Source: Candidatus Parcubacteria bacterium (GTDB taxonomy: Bacteria > Patescibacteriota > Minisyncoccia > UBA6257 > JAGOQP01). Taken from it: a stretch of DNA of 64,000 nt. This document shows positions 6,374 to 58,064 of this stretch, piece after piece. Location: contig AP024682.1 of assembly GCA_025999395.1 (NCBI GenBank), forward strand, positions 367,487 to 431,486, written 5' to 3'. A program made the position numbers and the translations under genes. A model generated the notes under the pieces. It was not told where the DNA came from. It saw only the letters and a program-made list of their open reading frames with translations, and did no database searches. Within the stretch, counting starts at the first letter, position 1. Every line of letters starts with the position of its first letter.

Positions 6374-7609
6374 ATGATCAAAACTGTTTTTCAAAAAATC
6401 AAAACTTTTTTAACTAACTTTAAACAAAGACAAAGGGTTCTTTTTGTTAGCTTTAAAGAGGAAGGGGTACTTTTGGAAAAAGTAGTTTTTTTATCAGAAG
6501 ATTTTGATCTTCAATGTTTTCGAAAAAAAATTCTTATTAAAGATTTAAACGAAAAAAATTTTAAGAATAATCTCTTTTTCAAGTTTTTTTTATTCTTTCT
6601 TTTCTTTCCTTTTCCTTACAAAGTGGTAGTTAATCTTTATCATCTTTATTGTTATTCTCAATGTTCTTTACTGGAAACTAAGAGAAAAAACCCTTCCCAA
6701 CCTTTAACTTCAGAAGAAATTAATTCCTTCTTTTTACAAAATATTTGGAAGCTAATTGAAGAGCAAAAAAGAAAGATCGTCAAAAAGAAAGAAATAGAAG
6801 AAGCCGAAATTTTATTGGTAGATAATCTTGTGTGCGGCATAAAAATTGACGCAAAAACTATTCCTCAGGATTTGAAAAATCTCTCTGATTTTCAAGGGCG
6901 GGATTTTAAGGTTAATCTTTTTCAAACTTTTGTAAAAAGATCTTTCTTTATTGACCTTACAAGAGTTCTTCCTCGTCGTGCTCAGCTGGCTGGTTTTTTT
7001 GAAGAAGGAATAACTTTGGCTACTTCTCTTTACTTGAAAGAGTTCTTTGAATCTCCTAAAAAAGAAAATCAACCCTTTCTTCTTTTTTTCTTAAGAGAAA
7101 AAGAAACCTCCGTTTTTCTTTTTGATAAAAAAGAAATTTATTCTTTTGATCATCTAAACTTTGGCTATTTCTATCTGTATCAGGTTTTTAATAATCTCTT
7201 GGGTATTAATAGGGAAGTTTTTGAAGAAATAATGAAAAGATTAGAAAGAAATGAACTTTCTGTAAAAGTGAGGGATTATTTCTTAAAGATTATTAGAAAG
7301 GAATTAAAGAATTTTTATTATGCAGTTTTTTCTCTAAAGAAAAGTTTGGGAGTTAAGAAGCATTATTTTTACGCAGAAAAGCTAACAAACTTTTTAAATA
7401 AATGGGAAAAGAAATATTTTTCTTCTTTGGTAAAAGAAGAAGCTCTCTTTTTTTCTTTTAAGAAGGATTCTTGCCTTAAAGAAGAGGATTTAGTGTTTCA
7501 ATCTCTTTTAAGTTTTTCTTTAGAAAACGTTTTTAGAAAAAGTTTGGCTAATAGCTTGGTTGTCAAATTAATTCGCTGGTTGATTCCTCATAATATACAA
7601 ATTGAATAG
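6374..7609 (+). CDS. hypothetical protein (Phe/Lys/Leu-rich, no recognisable domain)
   Basis: Long ORF with start and plausible RBS; no motif recognised. Confidence 0.5.
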   Translation: MIKTVFQKIKTFLTNFKQRQRVLFVSFKEEGVLLEKVVFLSEDFDLQCFRKKILIKDLNEKNFKNNLFFKFFLFFLFFPFPYKVVVNLYHLYCYSQCSLLETKRKNPSQPLTSEEINSFFLQNIWKLIEEQKRKIVKKKEIEEAEILLVDNLVCGIKIDAKTIPQDLKNLSDFQGRDFKVNLFQTFVKRSFFIDLTRVLPRRAQLAGFFEEGITLATSLYLKEFFESPKKENQPFLLFFLREKETSVFLFDKKEIYSFDHLNFGYFYLYQVFNNLLGINREVFEEIMKRLERNELSVKVRDYFLKIIRKELKNFYYAVFSLKKSLGVKKHYFYAEKLTNFLNKWEKKYFSSLVKEEALFFSFKKDSCLKEEDLVFQSLLSFSLENVFRKSLANSLVVKLIRWLIPHNIQIE

Positions 7610-30926: not shown

Positions 30927-31757
30927 TTGGATATGTTTGATTATTATCAGGAAAAGAAAAGAGAGGAAGTTATTAGAAAAAGAAGAAAGAAAAAATTTAT
31001 ATTAGCTTCTATTGTTTTTTTTCTTTTTTTAGGATTTTTGTTTTTTCTTTTTCATTCCAGTTTTTTTCAAATTAAAGCTTTAGAGGTTGAAGAAAAAGAC
31101 AATCATCAGCAGATAGCTGAAAAAAATTTAATCTCTGAAGTTTTTAGAGAAGAACTAAACAATCTTAGCTGGCCTTTAAACTGGATTTTTTCCAAAGATA
31201 ACCTCGTTCCTGTGCTTTTTAAAAAAGAAGTAATTATTGAAAAAGTTTTTCAATCTTTTCCTCTTTTTCGAGAAGTTGATTTAAAGGTTAATTTTTTCGA
31301 GAAAAAAGTTATTTTTCTGGTTAAAGAAAGAAATAAATTTGCTTTGTGGTGTAAAAAAACAAAAGAAGAATGCTTTTGGTTTGATGAAGAGGGAATTGCT
31401 TTTTTGGAGGCTCCCGTGGTAGAAGGAGAACTTATTTTCAAAGTTATTGATTATTCTGAAGGTGAAGTTAGAAAAGGGGAAAAAGTTCTTGCTGACAAAG
31501 ATTATTTAAAGAACTTAATCTCTGGTTTTGATTTTTTAAACAAAGCCGGCATTCCTTTGAGAACTTTGGAGTTAAAAGATTTAAGTTTAGCTGAGATTTC
31601 AACCCAAAAATTAAGTAATTTTCCTCAGATTCGTTTTAGTTTAAGGCATTCTCCCTTTTTTGCTTTGGAGGCAATTGAAAAAATAAGAAACATCTTTCCT
31701 CGACTTGAATATATAGATTTAACCGTTGAAAACAAAATATTTTACAAAGAGATATAG
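30927..31757 (+). CDS. FtsQ/DivIB-like cell division protein (TM + POTRA-like domain)
   Basis: Basic N-terminus, TM, then FtsQ-like pattern VDLKVNFFEKKVIFLVKERNKFALW...FDEEGIAF. Confidence 0.5.
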   Translation: MDMFDYYQEKKREEVIRKRRKKKFILASIVFFLFLGFLFFLFHSSFFQIKALEVEEKDNHQQIAEKNLISEVFREELNNLSWPLNWIFSKDNLVPVLFKKEVIIEKVFQSFPLFREVDLKVNFFEKKVIFLVKERNKFALWCKKTKEECFWFDEEGIAFLEAPVVEGELIFKVIDYSEGEVRKGEKVLADKDYLKNLISGFDFLNKAGIPLRTLELKDLSLAEISTQKLSNFPQIRFSLRHSPFFALEAIEKIRNIFPRLEYIDLTVENKIFYKEI

Positions 31758-31768
31758 TAAAGCTAAAT

Positions 31769-33682
31769 TTATTCTAGTTCTAGATAATAAACAAAGATCG
31801 ATGTTCCAACACGAGCAAACGGCTGGCTGTAGCGACTCAGCCAGCTATATTCATCTTCGGGTTTTCTTTGAAAACCTTTTGTTGGGCGGGCGGTTGCTCC
31901 CTGAAGAGAGTTGATAGAAATAGCTAACCATTTAATACCAAAGTCAGCAGGATTTCCTTTGGCTGATTGCCAACTTACCGCCCTATCTTTAAGGTAGTAA
32001 AAAATATCTCCTCCTCCAAAGTAATCAACAGCAATTTTTTCTATCCCGTTTTTTTCTACAAAGTTTTTTAAACGGAGAAGATCTTGTCCCCAGTCATAAT
32101 TTGAATCAGTAACAAAGCGATAGCCATTTTTTACCCCTCCTCCAATTTGATTAAAATAAGAAATAAAGTAGGGAGTAGCTACGACCGTTTCTATTAATGC
32201 CCATACAAGCAAAAATAGAATAATCCCTATTTTTAGATGTTTAGAAGTAATTTTTTGAATTTCTTGCCTTAAATTAATTTTCGCTTCGTTTTTCTTATCA
32301 ACCCATTTTTTTAGAGATCCTGTTGCCAAAATGTAGATAAAGGGAATAGTGGGGAGAATGTGACGAAAACCAATGTTAAGAGGGCTGTTAATGCTATAAA
32401 GCCAATAAAAGATAACCATTACTAACATTGAAAATTCAGCGAAATTCATCATTAAATATTCTCTCAAAGAATTAAGATGACGAATCTTTTTGATAAATAT
32501 TCTACCTAGTCCCAAAATTATTCCTAAGAGAGTAATTATTAAAGCCGGCAAGCTTTCTTTAAGAAGAAAAACAACCGGGAAATAATACCACCAGCCTCCA
32601 CCACTAATTTCTCCCAAAAAGTAAGCAGTATTTCCCCCAGCTGATCTTTGCATTACCATCAATATTCCTAAAAGATAATGTCCCAAAGCCCTAAGAACAG
32701 GTACTTTAGCCATCCAAATATCTAAGTTAGCCAAACATCTTAAAGAGAGAGATTTGAGTTGACAACTTTTCCATTCTTTATCGGGGCCACCGGCAAAAGA
32801 ACTTAAGATAAACTCGGTGTCGGCTTGTTGTTTGGAAGCCGGGTAATTTAAGGTAAAGATGAAATAAACTAGCCAAACAACTGCTAATCCTATCAAAAAG
32901 ATAATTACTAAAGACTTTAGATAACTAATTAAAAAAGAAAAGGAATTTTTTGATTTTAAAAGGATATTTTTTTCCTTACAAGAAATAATCCAATGAATAA
33001 TCGTCAGAAAAAGAAAGAGCGGAACCAAAAGAATAACCGAAAATTTCATCAATTGAGCAATTCCAAAAAAGATTCCGGCCAGAATAGTGTTTTTGGGGGT
33101 AGGGGAGTTTAATTGCTTGTTAAAGAAGTAAAGTCCAATAAAAAAACCCAAAGTAGCTCCTACATCTGTAGTTACATAGTGACCGTGAGCCAAAAAGTGA
33201 GGAGAAAAAGCAACTAAAAAGGCGGGAATTTGAGCCCACCATTTTCCAAAAAGCTTTCTTGACCACCAGTAAACAAAGACAACAAGAGTAATCGTAAGAA
33301 AAATAGGAAAGATTCTTGCTAGAAAAATGATCTCATCGGCTTTGTTTTCATTAAGCCAATAGATAAATTGATTACCTACTGCCCATTGCCCATTTACTTC
33401 TTTTGTCCAAATTTCTTGATTGAGAGGAAAATTTAGTTTTTTAAAAACCAAAGGAATAGCCGCTAAAACCTTTACTAAGGGTGGATGTTCGGGATTAAGC
33501 CGATAATCAAAAAATCGAAGGTAGCTGTAAGCAGCAGGAATATGGGCTAATTCATCCATAATAGCTGCTTCTTGAGAAGCGGAAAGAACCATTAAAAAAG
33601 TTGAAGATAAAATTATTAAGCTTAATAGAAGCCAAGAAAAAAAGCTCGAAATTTTGTTTTTTAAGTGATTAATTTGATCCAT
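31769..33682 (-). CDS. GT-C fold glycosyltransferase (GT39/PMT_2/ArnT-like), polytopic membrane protein
   Basis: Many TM helices; first-loop DE motif AIMDELAHIPAAYSY; large size. Confidence 0.75.
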   Translation of the reverse strand: MDQINHLKNKISSFFSWLLLSLIILSSTFLMVLSASQEAAIMDELAHIPAAYSYLRFFDYRLNPEHPPLVKVLAAIPLVFKKLNFPLNQEIWTKEVNGQWAVGNQFIYWLNENKADEIIFLARIFPIFLTITLVVFVYWWSRKLFGKWWAQIPAFLVAFSPHFLAHGHYVTTDVGATLGFFIGLYFFNKQLNSPTPKNTILAGIFFGIAQLMKFSVILLVPLFLFLTIIHWIISCKEKNILLKSKNSFSFLISYLKSLVIIFLIGLAVVWLVYFIFTLNYPASKQQADTEFILSSFAGGPDKEWKSCQLKSLSLRCLANLDIWMAKVPVLRALGHYLLGILMVMQRSAGGNTAYFLGEISGGGWWYYFPVVFLLKESLPALIITLLGIILGLGRIFIKKIRHLNSLREYLMMNFAEFSMLVMVIFYWLYSINSPLNIGFRHILPTIPFIYILATGSLKKWVDKKNEAKINLRQEIQKITSKHLKIGIILFLLVWALIETVVATPYFISYFNQIGGGVKNGYRFVTDSNYDWGQDLLRLKNFVEKNGIEKIAVDYFGGGDIFYYLKDRAVSWQSAKGNPADFGIKWLAISINSLQGATARPTKGFQRKPEDEYSWLSRYSQPFARVGTSIFVYYLELE

Positions 33683-33765: not shown

Positions 33766-34170
33766 ATGATAAAATCCAAGTATTTTTGGACTCAGCACGC
33801 TCTCCGGAAAATGAAATTTTATCAACTTTCTGAGAGTCGAGTTCGGCGAGTAATCAAAAGCCCCTTAAGAATAGAGGAGGGGATTGCTTATGGAACCATT
33901 GCGGTGATGCAGCCATCAAGTTATAAGGTGAGAAATAATCAAAAAACTTGGAGTCAGGAAATTTGGGTAATGTATCAAATTGCTAGTCCAAAACCATCGA
34001 TAGATAAAAAAAGTAAAGAAAAAGGGAAAGGACAATCAAAAATTGTTTCTTCGGGTGATAAACTAATAAAGATAATTTCTGCTTGGCGGTATCCGGGAAA
34101 AACTAATCCCGGAAGGAAACTACCTCCCGAAGTAATAAATGAAATTGAAGAAGCCCTAAATAGCTTGTAG
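33766..34170 (+). CDS. hypothetical protein with DUF4258-like N-terminal motif (tentative)
   Basis: TQHALRKMKFYQLSESRVRRVIKSP resembles DUF4258 H-A-x-x-R-M...I-S...V signature. Confidence 0.35.
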   Translation: MIKSKYFWTQHALRKMKFYQLSESRVRRVIKSPLRIEEGIAYGTIAVMQPSSYKVRNNQKTWSQEIWVMYQIASPKPSIDKKSKEKGKGQSKIVSSGDKLIKIISAWRYPGKTNPGRKLPPEVINEIEEALNSL

Positions 34171-52416: not shown

Positions 52417-53509
52417 TTAAGGTAAACAGGTTAATTCTGCTTCAATAAAATCATCTAAATCTCCTTCTTCCAGAACTCTTTCCACTTGTGTAGTTTCGCA
52501 GCCAGTTCGATGATCCTTAATAAGTTTATAAGGATTCAGTACATAAGATCGAATTTGACTCCCCCATTCTGGTTTTACTTTGGTTTTTAATTTATCCAGC
52601 TCTTGAATTTTTTCTTTTTCCATAAGCTGGATTAATTTGGCTTCCAAAATTTTTAAGGCTTTTTCCCGATTTTGAGATTGAGAACGCTCGGCTTGAGAAG
52701 AAGCAACCAAACCCGTTGGCAAATGTACAATTCTCACTGCGGTTTCTACCTTGTTGACATTTTGCCCTCCGGGTCCAGAAGAGCGAAAAAATTCTATTTT
52801 TAAATCTTTCTCGGGAATATTTAACCTTTGAAAATTATTGTCGTAATTTAATTCCGGCAAAACTTCAACCAAAGCAAAAGAAGTGTGTCTTAATTGTTGA
52901 GCAGAAAAGGGCGAAATTCTTACTAAGCGGTGAACGCCGCTTTCTTTCTTTAAATACCCAAAAGCAAAGTTTCCTTCGATTTCAAAAGTAATATTTTTTA
53001 AAGGGATTCGGCCGGTTCTTTCTTCGTTGGATTCTTGGGAATAATCCAAAATGATTACCTTCCAATTTTTTCTTTCTGCATAGGCTTTATACATTAAAAA
53101 GAGCATATGAACCCAATCAGCGGCATCTTTTCCTCCAGCTCCAGCGTAAATAGAAACAATAGCATTATTTTTATCCCATTTGCCCGTAAAGATTTTCTTT
53201 ATCTCTAATTTTCTTATTAACCCTTCTACTCTTAAAATTTCTGACTCATCAATTTTTTCTTTTTGAGCAATAAGATGAGCTAAAGAATTTTGAGCATCAA
53301 AAAAGATTTCCAGTATTTCTTTTATTTCGCCAATTTCTTCTAAAACCAGATCAACTTTCTTTTTGTCTTTCCAGAAATCACTATCCTGAAGTAAAAATTC
53401 CTTCTCCTTAAGGAAATTTTGTTTTTTCTCTACCTCAAAGCCAGCCTCCTATTTGGCGGAGGCGGACCGTTAAATCGTTCAGTTTTTGTTGATAATCTTT
53501 TTCTAACAT
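52417..53509 (-). CDS. prfB: peptide chain release factor 2 with programmed +1 frameshift
   Basis: 0-frame MLEKDYQQKLNDLTVRLRQIGGWL then UGA; +1 frame continues EVEKKQ...; GGQ motif SSGPGGQNVNKVETAV. Confidence 0.9.
53435..53450 (-). promoter_or_regulatory. prfB autoregulatory frameshift site: internal SD AGGAGG, spacer CUGG, CUU UGA G
   Basis: Reverse complement of 53435-53450 reads AGGAGGCTGGCTTTGA. Confidence 0.85.
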
Positions 53510-53530
53510 TTTTAAAAAATTTTTACCTAG

Positions 53531-53602
53531 AGCCGGAGGGGAGATTCGAACTCCCGACCTTGGCTTTACGAAAGCCCCGCTCTACCCCTGAGCTACTCCG
53601 GC
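53531..53602 (-). tRNA. tRNA-Thr (anticodon CGU)
   Basis: Hand fold of reverse complement: acceptor GCCGGAG/CTCCGGC, U8, D arm GCTC-AGGGGTA-GAGC, anticodon loop TTCGTAA, T arm GGGAG-TTCGAAT-CTCCC. Confidence 0.85.
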
Positions 53603-53662: not shown

Positions 53663-56038
53663 TTATTCTCTTAATCTTAAAAGAATTTCTTTTTCTACAA
53701 TCTCTCTTTCGGTGCCATACTTCAGGAAGGAAATTTCCTTTATTTTTTCTGCTAATTGGTAGTCAGAAGGCGGATAAAGAGGAGTTCTTATATTAAACGG
53801 TTTAGAAGTTTGACCATTGATGAGAATTTTTACACAAGCTCTTAGGTTGTCTAGATTGATTAAATCATTTTGGCTAAATTCTGGTTCGAATTGTTTTACT
53901 AAATATTCAGCATCATCAGCTCCTACTCGAAAAGAAATAATTGAACCAACATTTCCAAAAACCGCGTCCCTGATTTTTTCTGGCAACTGTTTAATATACT
54001 GGTTAGCCACCACCAAGTTTAAGTGAAACTTTCTGGCTTCTGCCAAAATAGAAGCCACCGAATCGGTAGTAAAGTTTTGAAACTCATCAATATAAAGATT
54101 AAAATCTTTTCTTTCTTTATCCGGAACATCAATTCGAGAAAAGGCAGCCATTAAAATTTTTCCAATAATAATCATCCCTAAAAGATTAGCATTAATTTCC
54201 CCTACTCTTCCCTTGGCTAAGTTAATAAGAAAGATTTTCCCTTCATCCATAATCTTGCGGAAGTTAAAGGAAGATTTTACCTGTCCAATAATAGGACGCA
54301 TATAGTCGTTCGCGATAAAATTATTGAATTTTGAAGTAATATAAGGAGTAATATTTGCCAAGGAGGCTTCTCCTCCTACGCGGATGGCTTCTTTTTCCCA
54401 GAAATCGATGACAACGGGATTGTTAATTCTAGCTAACTTTCTTCTTCTAAAAAGATCATCCGAAAAAACTCGCGGCACCTCCATCAGAGTGGCTGGTTCA
54501 TTGACGGCATCTTCCATTAAAAGCAAAAGAGCATTTCTCATATACTGCTCAAACATCGGTCCACCAGTAGCCTTTAAATCATAGAGTTTATCAAAGATGC
54601 TAAGCATTTCATTAACAATAAAAGTCTTTTGTTCCGGTTTATCAAAATCGTATTCCAGCATATTTAATCCAACAGGTTTTTTAACATTTGCCGGATCAAA
54701 ATAAATAACATCATCTATTCTTTGAGGAGGAATTAAAGCAAGCAGTTTTTCCGCTAATTCTCCGTGAGGATCCATTACTGCTACCCCCTTTCCTTTTTGA
54801 ATATCATCCAAAGCCATATTAGTAATTAAAGCTGTCTTTCCGGTGCCGGTTTGCCCGATAATGTAAACATGACGCCTTCTATCTTCTTCGGTTATATAAA
54901 CAGGCTTTATTACTCCATTAAAGACGCTTTCACCAATTTTAGTACCATCTGAAGGAAGATTAGGAGGAGGAGCAACTTCTTTCGATTTTAGCCATTTTAC
55001 TCGCGGAGAAAGAGTGGAGGTGGTGGGAAAATGAAAAACACCAGCTAATTCTTCGGTGTTTAAAATCATTTTTTGACTTTCGTCAAATTCTCTAAAGGAA
55101 AATTGATAAGCTAATTTTTTAAGGTTCTTTACTTTGACAATTTTTATTTTGTTTTTTAAAGGAGCTTCAAATTGAGAAAAAGATCCAGCAATTGCTTCCA
55201 TAATCCTTTCGGTTTGATATTGACTTAAAGAAGAAACCACTACTCGATAATTAATTTCAAACAAAGGTTTAGAAACTTTCTTTTCTAATTCTTTAATAGA
55301 AGTTTCATCAACAATGGAAGGAGAAGATTTCTTCTTTTCCTCCTCTTCAGGATTAATAGCTTCACTAATTTCTTTTAAATCGATTAAACTTTCTGAACTA
55401 ACTTTTTTAAAACTTTCTCCTTTGCGCAATTGATTAATCATTTCAAAAATTGATTTTTTATATGATTCGGCTGCTGGTCTAATAATAAGCTGAATAGCTG
55501 CTCCTTCTCCTACCTGATTTAGTCGAGAAAGTCCGCTTAAAATAGGAGAAAAGGTATCCACTTCACTTTCTAAGTAGGTTCTCAACATTAAGGAGTAATG
55601 TTTATCTTGCTTTAAATAAAAACCAGCCGAATATCCTTGGGGTTGAAAAATATTATACTCAGGAGCCAACTCTACTTGAGAATCTTTGAAAATTCCTTCT
55701 ATTTGCCGACTAACAAAAGAAACATCTTTCTCCGGCACAGCTAAATAAAAATGAATTTCTTCTCCTATATGATGAACCGCTGCCTCAAAAACTACCCCCT
55801 CCTTTATTGCCGAAAAAACATTAAATAGCTGTTCTGAAAGATTAATTTCTTCTTTAAACTTTCCTAGTGAAGTTTCTTTATCAGTAGCTGAAGGAGAAGG
55901 AAGCCTTACCAAAAGAAGTTTTAATCCCAGAGATCTTTTTAATCTCTCTTTTTTAAAAGAAAAAATTCCATAAAGAAAAACCCCCAACGCCAAAAAAGAA
56001 AGAAAGAAAACAGTTATTACTATCAAAAGATCATTCAT
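53663..56038 (-). CDS. membrane-anchored FtsK/HerA-superfamily P-loop ATPase resembling type IV coupling proteins (TraD/VirD4/TrwB) with large novel N-terminal domain
   Basis: N-terminal TM; Walker A RRHVYIIGQTGTGKT then VMDPHGE (T4CP-like DPxGE), Walker B LYIDEFQNF, C-terminal RKFHLNLVVANQYIKQL. Confidence 0.6.
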   Translation of the reverse strand: MNDLLIVITVFFLSFLALGVFLYGIFSFKKERLKRSLGLKLLLVRLPSPSATDKETSLGKFKEEINLSEQLFNVFSAIKEGVVFEAAVHHIGEEIHFYLAVPEKDVSFVSRQIEGIFKDSQVELAPEYNIFQPQGYSAGFYLKQDKHYSLMLRTYLESEVDTFSPILSGLSRLNQVGEGAAIQLIIRPAAESYKKSIFEMINQLRKGESFKKVSSESLIDLKEISEAINPEEEEKKKSSPSIVDETSIKELEKKVSKPLFEINYRVVVSSLSQYQTERIMEAIAGSFSQFEAPLKNKIKIVKVKNLKKLAYQFSFREFDESQKMILNTEELAGVFHFPTTSTLSPRVKWLKSKEVAPPPNLPSDGTKIGESVFNGVIKPVYITEEDRRRHVYIIGQTGTGKTALITNMALDDIQKGKGVAVMDPHGELAEKLLALIPPQRIDDVIYFDPANVKKPVGLNMLEYDFDKPEQKTFIVNEMLSIFDKLYDLKATGGPMFEQYMRNALLLLMEDAVNEPATLMEVPRVFSDDLFRRRKLARINNPVVIDFWEKEAIRVGGEASLANITPYITSKFNNFIANDYMRPIIGQVKSSFNFRKIMDEGKIFLINLAKGRVGEINANLLGMIIIGKILMAAFSRIDVPDKERKDFNLYIDEFQNFTTDSVASILAEARKFHLNLVVANQYIKQLPEKIRDAVFGNVGSIISFRVGADDAEYLVKQFEPEFSQNDLINLDNLRACVKILINGQTSKPFNIRTPLYPPSDYQLAEKIKEISFLKYGTEREIVEKEILLRLRE

Positions 56039-56078
56039 AGATAATTCGTTATTTGCTTATAAAAAAAGAGTTAAAAAA

Positions 56079-56486
56079 TTAAATTAACTCTCTTCTTTTT
56101 AACTCATCAAGCACTTTTTCTACTAAAGCATCGTGATAAAGATCTAAAAGATAAGGGTCATTTTCTTTTAAAGCCAACCTAACTCCGGCACTAATCCCCT
56201 TTTCTAAAGTTATTTCAATCAATTTTTTTACCTTTTCTTTAACATCTTCTTCGGCAGAAAGAGCGTAGCTTGGAAAAACTTCTGATGAAACATTTTGAGG
56301 GATTAAGCTTGGAGATGGCTGAGTTGCTTTGCTTAAGGTAGCGGCTTCTTCTACTTTTTTCTTAACAATTGATTCTATTATTTCTCTTTCGGAGGGCTTT
56401 TCAACAGCATCGAGACGTTGAAGGTTTTCTTTGTATTCTTGAGCAATTTGTTCGTAATTGATATTATGAAGATTGTTATCAGGCAT
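56079..56486 (-). CDS. hypothetical soluble protein immediately upstream of (same strand as) the T4CP-like ATPase
   Basis: ORF with no TM and no recognised motif. Confidence 0.45.
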   Translation of the reverse strand: MPDNNLHNINYEQIAQEYKENLQRLDAVEKPSEREIIESIVKKKVEEAATLSKATQPSPSLIPQNVSSEVFPSYALSAEEDVKEKVKKLIEITLEKGISAGVRLALKENDPYLLDLYHDALVEKVLDELKRRELI

Positions 56487-56504: not shown

Positions 56505-58064
56505 ATGAATGACTATAAAAAATACTTTTGGCTTGCTTTGGGAGTTATTTTTATTTTAACAGTTTTCTTCCGATTTTACAATTTGGCCACAGTTCCGCCA
56601 GGACTTTACCCAGATGAGGCAATGAATGGCAATAATGCTTTAGAGGCAATAAAAACTGGAAAATTTAAAGTTTTTTATCCAGAAAATAACGGTCGAGAAG
56701 GTCTTTTTATAAACTTTCAAGCTTTGCTCTTAAAAATTTTTCAAAAAAGAGAACCCTGGGTTTTGCGTTCTGCCAGCGCTCTTTTTGGGAGTTTAACAGT
56801 AATTGGAATCTTCTTTCTGATTGTTGAAATTTTAAAAATCAATTCTTGGGAAAAAAACAAATCTTTTTTACTTTTACCCTTTTTAAGCTCTTTTTTAGTA
56901 GCTATAAGTTTTTGGCATATTAACTTTTCCCGCATTGGTTTTCGAGCAATTATGGCGCCGGCTTTTTTGGTATGGTCCATTTATTTTTTGATAAAATCAT
57001 TTAATAGAGAAAAAGAAACTCGCGAAAGAATAATAAATCCTTTTTTGTTAGCTGGCTTAGCCGGCTTTCTTTATGGATTAGGAATGCATTCTTATATTGC
57101 TTATCGTGTTACTCCTCTTTTAATAATTTCTATTTATTTTCTTTATTGGAAATTTAATCCTGAGAGTATCAGTAAAAAAAGAATTTTTTTAAATTTTCTT
57201 ACTTTTACTATTTTTGCTTTGATAGCTTTTGCTCCCTTAGGAATTTATTTTCTAAAAAATCCTGCTGACTTTTTTGGGAGGACTGGCCAACTTTCCATTT
57301 TTTCCTCCCCTACTCCTTTAAAGGATTTGATTGAAAATACTCTTAAAACTTTAGCGATGTTTCATTTTAAAGGGGATGCTAATTGGAGACACAATTATTC
57401 TGGCAGTCCTCAACTTTTTTGGTTAACAGGATTATTCTTTGTTTTGGGAATTTTAAAGGGAATAGCTTGGGTAATTGATAAAAAAACAAAGGAAGTCACT
57501 AGAGATAATCAAAAAAATAATCTAAAATTTATCTTTCTTCTTTCGCTTATTTGGTTGATTTTAGCATTTTTGCCGGTGGTTATTTCTAATGAAGGTATTC
57601 CTCACGCTTTGCGCTCGATTTTAATGATTCCTCCAGTTTTTATTATCTCCGGAATAGGTGGTTTTTATTTTTTTGAGTTTATTTATCGAAAAACAAATAA
57701 AAAAATAACTTATTTAGTTGGAATAATTCTAATGCTGGCGATGATCCTTCAATCTTTTATCTTCTATTTTATTCTTTGGGCAAAAAATCCCAATGTCGCT
57801 GATGCCTTCAGTGTTAGATATTTAGAAATCGGTCGGCAAATAAATGAAATTTCTGAAAAAGTAAAAAAATATGTTGTTGTTAATGCGTCAGGAATAGAAG
57901 TTCGAGGAATTCCTATGCCTGCTCAAATCATAATGTTTATTACTGATTCCTTTAGCTTCGAAGATCAAGAAAAAAAGCAAATCTTTTATATTTCTCCCGA
58001 AAAAGAAAAAGAAGTTGATGAAAATAATTCCTTAATCTTTTATTTAGAGGAAAAAAGAGATTAG
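56505..58064 (+). CDS. GT-C fold glycosyltransferase (GT39/PMT_2/ArnT-like); start taken at MNDYKKYFW to avoid overlap with divergent gene (ORF track starts at TTG 56418)
   Basis: N-terminal TM then RFYNLATVPPGLYPDEAMNG first-loop DE motif; polytopic. Confidence 0.75.
   Translation: MNDYKKYFWLALGVIFILTVFFRFYNLATVPPGLYPDEAMNGNNALEAIKTGKFKVFYPENNGREGLFINFQALLLKIFQKREPWVLRSASALFGSLTVIGIFFLIVEILKINSWEKNKSFLLLPFLSSFLVAISFWHINFSRIGFRAIMAPAFLVWSIYFLIKSFNREKETRERIINPFLLAGLAGFLYGLGMHSYIAYRVTPLLIISIYFLYWKFNPESISKKRIFLNFLTFTIFALIAFAPLGIYFLKNPADFFGRTGQLSIFSSPTPLKDLIENTLKTLAMFHFKGDANWRHNYSGSPQLFWLTGLFFVLGILKGIAWVIDKKTKEVTRDNQKNNLKFIFLLSLIWLILAFLPVVISNEGIPHALRSILMIPPVFIISGIGGFYFFEFIYRKTNKKITYLVGIILMLAMILQSFIFYFILWAKNPNVADAFSVRYLEIGRQINEISEKVKKYVVVNASGIEVRGIPMPAQIIMFITDSFSFEDQEKKQIFYISPEKEKEVDENNSLIFYLEEKRD

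Follow-up and report, generated by a model that had tools for sequence, protein, structure and literature searches.

Known systems

Much of bacterial diversity is contributed by Patescibacteria, whose cells live attached to a host. They have a T4SS-like apparatus, which is essential in the one tractable species and which has no recognised coupling protein, no relaxase and no known substrate. In the survey of Quinonero-Coronel et al. 2025, there were 5,713 VirD4-like matches in 2,918 of 3,035 genomes, 148 of these matches being near virB4 (PMC12102498). T4CP-like genes occurred in approximately 500 more genomes than VirB4 (96% vs 80%), and exaptation of these patescibacterial homologues was suggested in bulk (PMC12102498). 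Thus T4CP-like genes far from virB4 are already known. However, the survey did not split them into subfamilies and noted no N-domain fold, small partner or fusion.

The type IV coupling proteins (T4CPs) TrwB, VirD4, TraD and TraG usually have two TM helices followed directly by the nucleotide-binding domain, with no VirB4-like N-terminal domain in between. VirB4, TrwK and TraC carry no TM helix of their own, and the partner VirB3 is a membrane protein. CedD, like CedB, is an ATPase of the Ced system, by which Crenarchaeota import DNA (PMC11868833). [quoted passage not shown] It is encoded apart from the other genes of its system and works without a relaxase. It is also induced by DNA damage, and no small partner has been described for it. 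Finally, Cagbeta-CagZ, DotL-IcmS/W and TraD-TraM are regulated pairs of a T4CP and a small protein, the latter binding to the all-alpha domain or to the C-terminal tail.

The locus and its genomic contexts

The window is a stretch of 64,000 nucleotides from a Candidatus Parcubacteria genome, and all coordinates refer to it. The two ORFs in question are on the minus strand, both located as described in the initial annotation. The downstream gene (53663-56038, 791 aa) encodes a membrane-anchored ATPase of the VirB4/VirD4 clade belonging to the DUF8128 family, and the upstream gene (56079-56486, 135 aa) encodes a small, soluble, acidic protein. Since relatives are 60-68% identical over the full length, the genes are real. 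They are presumably co-transcribed. The spacer between them (56039-56078, minus strand) is 40 nt long, not 4 nt as originally thought, and ranges from -4 to 183 nt in relatives. The tRNA-Thr(CGT) gene (53530-53602, minus strand) indeed lies downstream of the ATPase gene, at a distance of 60 nt. A gene encoding a PMT_2-like membrane protein is divergent from the 135-aa gene, its ATG being 18 nt away. The GC content at the locus is unremarkable.

A comparison of 20 large ORFs of the window with Pfam, together with genes called on identical contigs, yielded no relaxase, VirB6/B8 or pilin genes. All scanned ORFs and called genes around the pair are housekeeping ones. This agrees with the initial description of the surroundings as core genes rather than a conjugative island.

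The 791-aa protein is 100% identical to a protein from a Candidatus Parcubacteria MAG and has more than 6,000 homologues. The family numbers 5,761 representatives at E<=1e-30 (more than 5,700 clusters at 50% identity), and the ATPase can hardly be called an orphan. The DUF8128 ATPase genes were observed in several contexts, namely YchF/PrfB/FtsEX, SecY-Adk-Map-Ndk, DnaX and YifB/GyrBA. No T4SS, relaxase or mobile-element genes were found beside the ATPase gene in the window and 88 related loci, unlike the relaxase and T4SS association of T4CPs. Nor do these exclusively housekeeping contexts resemble the T4SS cluster with VirB3, VirB6 and VirB8 that is typical for VirB4. The pair, split or fused, is conserved throughout the ultrasmall Patescibacteria and counts among their core genes.

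The PMT_2-like gene and YchF were considered as additional members of the system and rejected. They are retained in close relatives only (12 of 37 split-type loci), which is background synteny. A role in defence was rejected as well, as the HerA/mad8 matches in PADLOC are weak and restricted to the P-loop level, and there are no defence genes in the neighbourhood.

Domain structure of the ATPase

The protein starts with a single TM helix (aa 5-27, LIVITVFFLSFLALGVFLYGIFS; 55958-56026, minus strand), as had been claimed, compared to the usual two in T4CPs. The charge distribution corresponds to the N-out, C-in topology: the K+R count is 0.15 before and 3.92 after the helix, and 47 of the 48 TM-type members obey the positive-inside rule. 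Next comes the N-terminal domain (approximately aa 38-335; 55034-55927, minus strand). Initially, no recognisable motif was seen in the N-terminal 350 aa. However, this region is Pfam family PF26449/DUF8128, with a precomputed match on the identical protein and on nearly all homologues. Structures were predicted for the full-length ATPase and for its N-domain. According to these models, the DUF8128 domain is folded like the N-terminal domain of VirB4/TrwK.

The C-terminal RecA-like ATPase domain of the VirB4/VirD4/HerA clade (approximately aa 365-755; 53774-54946, minus strand) contains all motifs listed in the initial annotation. These are Walker A GQTGTGKT (54833-54856, minus strand) with the invariant K401, VMDPHGE some 25 aa after it, Walker B LYIDEF(QNF) (54080-54097, minus strand) with nearly invariant D651 and E652 and invariant F653, and NLVVANQYIKQL. 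The catalytic residues are retained in members 33-55% identical to the window ATPase. An all-alpha insertion is situated between Walker A and Walker B (approximately aa 465-600; 54239-54646, minus strand), where T4CPs have their all-alpha domain, and consists of eight helices (H468-598) in the AF2 model (pLDDT 80). The alignment with TrwB spans about 460 columns. Some members of the family have long C-terminal extensions (up to 2,006 aa) of low complexity, rich in Pro and Ala. These contain no Pfam domains and were rejected as functional fusions.

Sequence profiles relate the C-terminal NTPase to T4CPs. The window ATPase scores 29.9 bits with TrwB_AAD_bind, which exceeds the Pfam cutoff (20.5), over aa 383-431 only. 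The scores with SXT_TraD (53 bits, cutoff 366) and with the VirB4 profile TIGR00929 (15.9 bits, cutoff 643) are far below the thresholds. Among 30 diverse members, Pfam domain TrwB_AAD_bind (PF10412) was found in 26, TraG-D_C (PF12696) in 22, and T4SS-DNA_transf (PF02534) in 14, and CagE_TrbE_VirB was found neither in these members nor in the window ATPase. The TraD/VirD4 models matched 25-29 members and the VirB4 models 7-10, weakly. None of the 30 members reached the curated NCBIfam T4CP cutoffs, and none matched FtsK models, so that the initial distinction from FtsK is upheld. Thus sequence profiles favour T4CPs over VirB4, but the predicted fold does not.

The architecture has features of both families. 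In contrast to T4CPs, about 300 aa of the VirB4-type DUF8128 domain separate the anchor from the ATPase, and the protein is encoded by a chromosomal core gene with an obligate small upstream partner. In contrast to VirB4, TrwK and TraC, it has its own TM helix, its partner is soluble, unlike VirB3, and a separate bona fide VirB4 is encoded in the T4SS cluster of Patescibacteria. The family has neither the alpha/beta motor with a gamma domain and the multi-pass membrane domain of FtsK/SpoIIIE, nor the HAS-barrel N-domain with the HerA ATPase and the NurA partner. The domain order is the same as in CedD, whose profile matches 24 of the 30 members. However, the score of the window ATPase with the CedD model NF053655 is 33.5 bits (cutoff 600), the match is weak and confined to the P-loop region, and by sequence the protein is not a CedD. 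The large subunit is related to both T4SS motors, VirB4 and the coupling protein.

The partner protein

The 135-aa protein (pI 5.0, maximum KD19 0.78) belongs to no family in Pfam, NCBIfam, PADLOC or PHROG. It has a conserved C-terminal helical core L..KGI..A..VA.K..DP..D.FHD.LV at approximately aa 88-125. A direct homologue search returned two near-identical proteins and nothing else, and thus homology was recovered via positional counterparts, one of which (locus L004) is 31% identical to it. Single-sequence phmmer found homologues directly upstream of the ATPase gene in 37 of 78 loci. With a profile built from the free-standing copies, all 40 of 40 ORF matches were directly upstream of the ATPase gene. 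The same profile also matched 29 fused ATPases in their N-terminal extensions, with E-values from 6e-16 to 7e-6, and the reversed control gave no matches. Iteration past one round led to drift (88-89 matches elsewhere), and the profile seeded with a single sequence was retained.

Indeed, the partner domain is fused to the N-terminus of the ATPase at 30 loci. These make up one derived, monophyletic clade that branches from within the split forms. The TM helix is present in 37 of 38 split loci and in none of the 30 fused ones, so its loss coincides exactly with the fusion, and membrane anchoring is dispensable. Co-conservation in position -1 and the fusion in a sister clade bear out the suggestion of a two-gene system, and sequence comparison strongly supports the 135-aa protein as a genuine, dedicated partner of the ATPase. 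It has no sequence similarity or demonstrated structural similarity to CagZ, IcmS/W or TraM, and differs from them in that its fusion point is the N-terminus of the ATPase.

In other lineages, unrelated small genes occupy the same -1 position. There are three partner families, the 135-aa type of Paceibacteria, the 'IPGVNKFF' type of the ABY1-like group, and the 'DPHKL...RWD' type of Saccharibacteria. No homology among them was detected by hmmsearch, and the hhalign probability was 0.2%.

Probable counterparts in Southlakia

The DUF8128 ATPases are almost certainly the T4CP homologues of the 2025 survey, which cites the T4CP homologue of Southlakia as non-essential (PMC12102498). This description fits SEML1_0293, scored NE in Table S1. 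However, the same table lists SEML1_0142 as essential. The published Tn-seq scores both SEML1_0141 (139 aa) and SEML1_0142 (1,019 aa, P-loop domain 381-800) of Southlakia epibionticum ML1 as essential, with no discussion of this in the paper. The genes are located between YifB and GyrB, as are the DUF8128 genes of other Saccharibacteria. Judging by synteny, length and domain layout, they are apparently the counterparts of the pair, and no homology could be detected between the saccharibacterial small partner and the 135-aa protein. Through them, the pair appears to be essential in the single species for which this was tested, and the window genes may be essential as well. The T4SS of Southlakia (Se) is also essential, and its own cluster contains no recognisable coupling protein.

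Possible function

We suggest that the products of the pair form a conserved motor of two subunits, encoded in the patescibacterial core genome and acting as the second motor of the T4SS-like apparatus. This reading is tentative, with a probability of about 0.45. The large subunit combines a single-pass N-out/C-in anchor, a cytoplasmic VirB4-type NTD, and a catalytically intact RecA-like ATPase in which an all-alpha segment is inserted as in T4CPs. Like all its characterised relatives (TrwB, VirB4, HerA, CedB/CedD), it should form a ring beneath the membrane and use ATP for pushing or pulling a polymer. Judging by the fusion, in which it takes the place of the TM helix, the partner most probably attaches to the motor at its membrane-proximal N-terminal end, and could be an adaptor, docking or regulatory subunit. 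The pair would be a dispersed, coupling-type motor of a pilus-bearing, relaxase-less, essential apparatus, feeding or receiving a macromolecule, either protein or DNA, in the exchange with the host cell. DNA import by the archaeal CedD is the closest characterised precedent. The link to the T4SS is supported by the fact that no coupling protein is recognisable in the cluster of the essential T4SS of Southlakia, and by the occurrence of T4CP-like genes in 2,918 of 3,035 genomes, mostly away from virB4. On the other hand, the ATPase gene never clusters with virB4, and it has no relaxase or DNA-processing partner. Moreover, distant full-length homologues from Firmicutes phages reside in early or replication regions, which hints at DNA-handling roles unrelated to secretion. 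A repurposed non-conjugative role, as suggested in the initial annotation, is plausible, and the same was proposed for the homologues in bulk (PMC12102498).

More genomes contain T4CP-like genes than VirB4, and thus a T4SS may not be required for the function of the family. Together with the lack of virB4 nearby and the housekeeping context, this is consistent with a self-contained translocase using another channel, such as the ComEC/type IV pilus competence machinery or some other pore, and importing DNA or nucleotides or exporting proteins in cells unable to make their own nucleotides. CedD shows that an ATPase with a TM segment and a VirB4-type NTD can serve as an import motor. However, the pair is not accompanied by any conserved channel gene, and the fused form has no membrane anchor. 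Besides, deletion of comEC is viable in Southlakia, whereas SEML1_0142 is scored essential, and thus competence alone is not the role. We consider this explanation possible, if somewhat unlikely. It is improbable that the protein is a cytoplasmic motor of the HerA/FtsK kind, handling DNA or the chromosome in segregation, repair or replication, and resembles secretion ATPases by chance. Replacement of FtsK was rejected, as FtsK is structurally distant, and Southlakia has a canonical FtsK of its own, which is essential.

Genes of tRNA are common integration sites, and the adjacent tRNA-Thr could mark what is left of a conjugative element or phage that had integrated there, with an ordinary mobile-element T4CP. 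In PHROGs there is a full-length family, phrog_5156 (E 6.6e-85), and the genes between the ATPase gene and prfB differ among relatives. However, genes for an integrase, a relaxase or a T4SS are absent, synteny is retained across genomes with 60-68% protein identity, and the family is phylum-wide, its tree tracking class-level lineages. Viral contigs of IMG/VR yielded CTD-only relatives and no other kind. The latter result, the GC content and the housekeeping context effectively refute an origin by mobile-element or tRNA-associated integration, and this explanation is extremely improbable.

One further scenario, rather unlikely at present, is that the pair forms an essential patescibacterial machine not recognised before, the family being a lineage intermediate between VirB4 and T4CPs, with the N-domain of the former and the motor of the latter. 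It would then be the substrate-selecting motor of the essential, relaxase-less T4SS-like organelle, with a fast-evolving, lineage-specific adaptor setting the exchange with the host. If true, the family might be an evolutionary link showing the origin of coupling proteins from VirB4. In any case, the co-occurrence of a VirB4-type N-domain and T4CP-like motor motifs in one protein bears on the divergence of the T4SS ATPase families.

Three findings appear to be new: the assignment of the fold, the obligate partner, and the link to essentiality. They set one of the scattered "T4CP-like" genes apart as the gene of a core protein found throughout the phylum, with a predicted VirB4-type N-domain and an obligate small partner. 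They also correct the view that the T4CP homologue of Southlakia is dispensable, as this holds for one of the two paralogues only. With an apparently essential counterpart in Southlakia, the pair is a candidate for the missing motor and adaptor of the apparatus that is concrete enough to be tested.

The ATPase and its partner gene

The ORFs of the 791-aa ATPase (53663-56038, minus strand) and of the 135-aa protein (56079-56486, minus strand) are present in the window, as are tRNA-Thr(CGT) (53530-53602, minus strand) and, within the ATPase, the Walker A motif GQTGTGKT (54833-54856, minus strand), the Walker B motif LYIDEF (54080-54097, minus strand) and a single N-terminal hydrophobic helix (55958-56026, minus strand). 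The ATPase also contains the motifs VMDPHGE and NLVVANQYIKQL, as noted initially, and is 100% identical to KatS3mg098_411 from a Candidatus Parcubacteria MAG. The spacer between the two genes is 40 nt rather than the 4 nt assumed initially, and a PMT_2-like membrane-protein gene (56505-58064, plus strand) abuts the 135-aa gene divergently, with the start codons 18 nt apart. Its 519-aa product has no Pfam match here and a weak PMT_2 match in orthologues. The window contains two such PMT_2/GT39-like polytopic membrane glycosyltransferase-type genes, the other being at 31769-33682 (minus strand).

The GC content of the pair (0.345-0.35) is close to that of the window (range about 0.29-0.37). Comparison of 20 large ORFs with Pfam, together with gene calls on identical contigs, upheld the view that the surroundings are housekeeping: primase, sigma-70, tRNA synthetases, SecY/Adk/Map, MurG, FtsW, MraY, ScpAB, DnaX, FtsEX, PrfB and YchF are encoded, and no relaxase, VirB or pilin genes were found in this set. 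No second paralogue of the ATPase is present in the window. Three ORFs amid these genes (6374-7609, 411 aa; 30927-31757, 276 aa; 33766-34170, 134 aa; all plus strand) have no Pfam match at E<=1e-3. In the related loci L004, L006 and L008, an unannotated gene of similar size follows seryl-tRNA synthetase, and an unannotated gene of 125-139 aa follows the large PMT_2 gene.

The release factor 2 gene prfB (52417-53509, minus strand) has a classical programmed +1 frameshift. ORF0 (MLEKDYQQKLNDLTVRLRQIGGWL) stops at CTT-TGA (53440-53435), with an internal Shine-Dalgarno-like AGGAGG (53450-53445) ahead of it, and the downstream frame is a 229-aa ORF (52417-53106). Some gene callers split or shorten this gene (229 aa; 147 aa in one assembly).

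Distribution of the ATPase family

The ATPase was initially described as an orphan. However, a word-index search yielded more than 6,000 homologues, and comparison with 1.84 billion 50%-identity representatives produced 21,675 matches at E<=1e-3 and 5,761 at E<=1e-30, many of them aligning from residue ~5 to ~790. The best 120 word-index matches are about 790 aa long, with 59-68% identity over the full length, and come from Patescibacteria wherever named. Searching one genome for each GTDB species gave at least 600 matches. The best 80 of these loci are from Patescibacteria MAGs (by label, otherwise by sequence similarity), including Nomura-, Staskawicz-, Moran-, Falkow-, Komeili-, Uhr-, Azam-, Zambryski-, Taylor-, Vogel- and Niyogibacteria.

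Saccharibacterial members are about 1,000 aa long and have a disordered Ala/Pro-rich tail; in the loci L091-L093 the tails are 180-250 aa and end with a conserved ...(E/D)DG(V/T)VLRWR motif. The family proteins P0162, P0166, P0177 and P0178 (1,706-2,006 aa) have Pro/Ala-rich low-complexity C-terminal extensions of up to about 1,200 aa, and no Pfam domains were found in those of P0162, P0166 and P0178. A locus of a Candidatus Nomurabacteria MAG encodes a 496-aa paralogue (L050:2390-3880, plus strand; DRRRHLYIVGKSGVGKT, IDPHGD) that consists of the C-terminal domain only, without the TM helix and DUF8128, four genes upstream of the fused-type gene. Taken with the three T4CP matches published for RAAC4_OD1_1, it shows that a genome can hold several T4CP-like paralogues.

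Distant homologues occur in phages of Firmicutes (JN638751.1 91048-93156; KY565347.3 30542-32806, locus L089:5755-8019; OQ317942.1 25589-28132, locus L090:4077-6620). These are gp156 of Bacillus phage G (24% identity over aa 97-770), a protein of Geobacillus phage TP-84 and the "DNA helicase or translocase" of 0105phi7-2. The phage G and TP-84 proteins span both the DUF8128 region and the motor domain (20-24% identity, about 85% of the query), and phrog_5156 of PHROGs matches the ATPase at full length (E 6.6e-85). In TP-84 and 0105phi7-2 the gene is flanked by the lysis cassette on one side and replication/partition genes on the other, and small genes come before it, one encoding a putative membrane protein.

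The small partner and its fusion to the ATPase

A database search with the 135-aa protein, a soluble, acidic protein with a pI of about 5, found almost no homologues. In a relative with 64% identity in the ATPase, the gene at this position encodes a protein with 31% identity to the 135-aa protein (E 7e-22). With single-sequence phmmer, 37 of the 78 loci with sufficient upstream sequence had a partner homologue as the next gene upstream, in the same orientation, at spacers of -4 to 183 nt; the divergent PMT_2-like gene is kept in close relatives only (12 of 37 split-type loci). A profile built from free-standing copies matched 40 small ORFs in all 88 loci, every one at position -1. The partner diverges faster than the ATPase (mean identity 32% vs 51%; the partner has the lower value in 60 of 60 genome pairs). 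At -1, the more distant TM-type loci (Falkow-, Komeili- and Uhrbacteria-like) have a same-strand gene of another family (156-181 aa, motif IPGVNKFF[LI]EQExKIKTDKIL), and Saccharibacteria have a third type (159-210 aa, ...DPHKL...RWD...GDGLNG). Profile-profile comparison revealed no homology between the partner types.

A further set of about 30 loci have an ATPase ORF of 890-970 aa. In 29 of these proteins the partner profile covers the complete N-terminal extension (positions ~7-123 of its 134; E 6e-16 to 7e-6), with no matches in a reversed-sequence control. The TM helix is present in 37 of 38 split-type ATPases (KD19 >= 1.8) and in none of 30 fused ones (KD19 <= 1.38). Thus fusion and the membrane anchor are mutually exclusive. 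The fused ATPases group as one clade nested within the split ones in a neighbour-joining tree with a phage homologue as root. This implies one event of fusion plus TM loss. The constant position and the fusion support the proposed two-gene system: the small protein is a genuine, dedicated partner tied to the N-terminus of the ATPase.

Architecture of the ATPase

The N-terminal region, initially considered unassigned, is Pfam PF26449 (DUF8128) in precomputed annotations. AlphaFold2 models of the full ATPase (pLDDT 80) and of residues 36-362 alone (pTM 0.81) were compared with the PDB. In the model, an all-alpha insertion of about 135 residues (eight helices) between Walker A and Walker B occupies the position of the T4CP all-alpha domain. 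Among 30 diverse members (32-55% identity to the window protein), K401 is invariant, and D651/E652 of Walker B, R669, Q680 and four polar N-domain residues (E85, K254, E330, H336) are nearly so. In 47 of 48 members the charges around the TM helix follow the positive-inside rule (K+R 0.15 before vs 3.92 after the helix), and thus both globular domains are cytoplasmic.

Sequence profiles detect only the ATPase domain of the 791-aa protein: TrwB_AAD_bind and DUF87 score 29.9 bits each (cutoff 20.5 for the former), SXT_TraD 53 bits against a cutoff of 366, CedD 33 bits, VirB4 16 bits, and FtsK E 0.26. Of the 30 diverse members, SXT_TraD matched 29, TOL_TraD 28, TrwB_AAD_bind 26, VirD4-like CD1115 25, CedD 24, TraG-D_C 22, T4SS-DNA_transf 14, VirB4 models 7-10, HerA six and FtsK none. 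The initial assignment to T4CPs rather than VirB4 agrees with the profiles, but not with the VirB4-type architecture. The ATPase thus has a VirB4-type architecture and its own membrane anchor together with motor motifs of T4CP type, and fits the full definition of neither family. It is an anchored, cytoplasm-facing, catalytically intact member of the VirB4/VirD4 clade.

Genomic contexts and essentiality

The contexts of the ATPase genes vary by lineage and are all housekeeping: YchF, PMT_2-like and PrfB-FtsE-FtsX for the split type, SecY-Adk-Map-[ATPase]-Ndk at the end of the ribosomal-protein operon for the fused type, DnaX for the 'C' type, and YifB ... [partner][ATPase]-GyrB-GyrA in Saccharibacteria. 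In the window, Map is followed by a GT2 glycosyltransferase gene. No gene family besides the partner is co-conserved across lineages.

In Southlakia epibionticum, SEML1_0141 precedes SEML1_0142 in the same orientation, with a gap of 12 nt, between YifB (0138) and GyrB (0145), and DUF8128 ATPases of other Saccharibacteria have the same gene order. From this synteny, length and domain layout, we infer that SEML1_0141 and SEML1_0142 correspond to the pair in the window. Two T4CP-like proteins appear in the Tn-seq tables of Wang et al. 2023, of which SEML1_0142 (1,019 aa) scored essential and SEML1_0293 (921 aa, adjoining Cas9) non-essential; the 139-aa hypothetical protein SEML1_0141 is listed as GD/ES/ES with zero insertions. 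The main text mentions neither SEML1_0141 nor SEML1_0142, and describes an essential T4SS cluster without recognisable coupling and relaxase proteins. The Southlakia T4CP homologue was elsewhere noted as not essential (PMC12102498).

Possible role

T4CP-like genes far from virB4 are already known in Patescibacteria, as is the Pfam family of the N-domain. Quinonero-Coronel et al. 2025 found 5,713 VirD4-like T4CP homologues in 2,918 of 3,035 genomes, only 148 of them near virB4, itself present in 2,417 genomes; they saw hardly any relaxases and put forward exaptation as an explanation (PMC12102498). In the literature searched, we found no mention of the name DUF8128, and no description of its VirB4-NTD fold, an obligate small partner that evolves fast or is repeatedly replaced, the swap of anchor for fusion, the housekeeping contexts, or the inferred essentiality of the Saccharibacterial ATPase and partner. 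The initial observation was mostly right, with the labels orphan, unassigned N-domain and T4CP rather than VirB4 to be revised.

By analogy with TrwB, VirB4, HerA and CedB/CedD, the ATPase may assemble as a ring and translocate a polymer. The partner would sit at the membrane-proximal end as an adaptor or docking subunit, because its N-terminal fusion can replace the anchor. A translocase independent of T4SS is possible, though less probable than a role within such a system; it would fit the wider distribution of T4CP-like genes compared with VirB4. A cytoplasmic DNA-handling motor seems unlikely; the DNA-metabolism genes in the neighbourhood, the similarity to HerA/DptH and the distant full-length phage homologues near replication modules (phage G gp156, TP-84, 0105phi7-2) point in that direction. 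A mobile-element remnant is very improbable: given the housekeeping contexts and a family tree that follows class-level groupings, the ATPase is a vertically inherited core gene, in line with the initial view that this is not an intact conjugative island.

The most likely role, with a probability of about 0.45, is that of a dispersed second motor of the Patescibacterial T4SS-like apparatus. A precedent is CedD, needed for DNA import in Saccharolobus: it too joins a TM segment and a VirB4-NTD-like domain to an ATPase, and its gene lies away from the rest of the Ced genes (PMC11868833).
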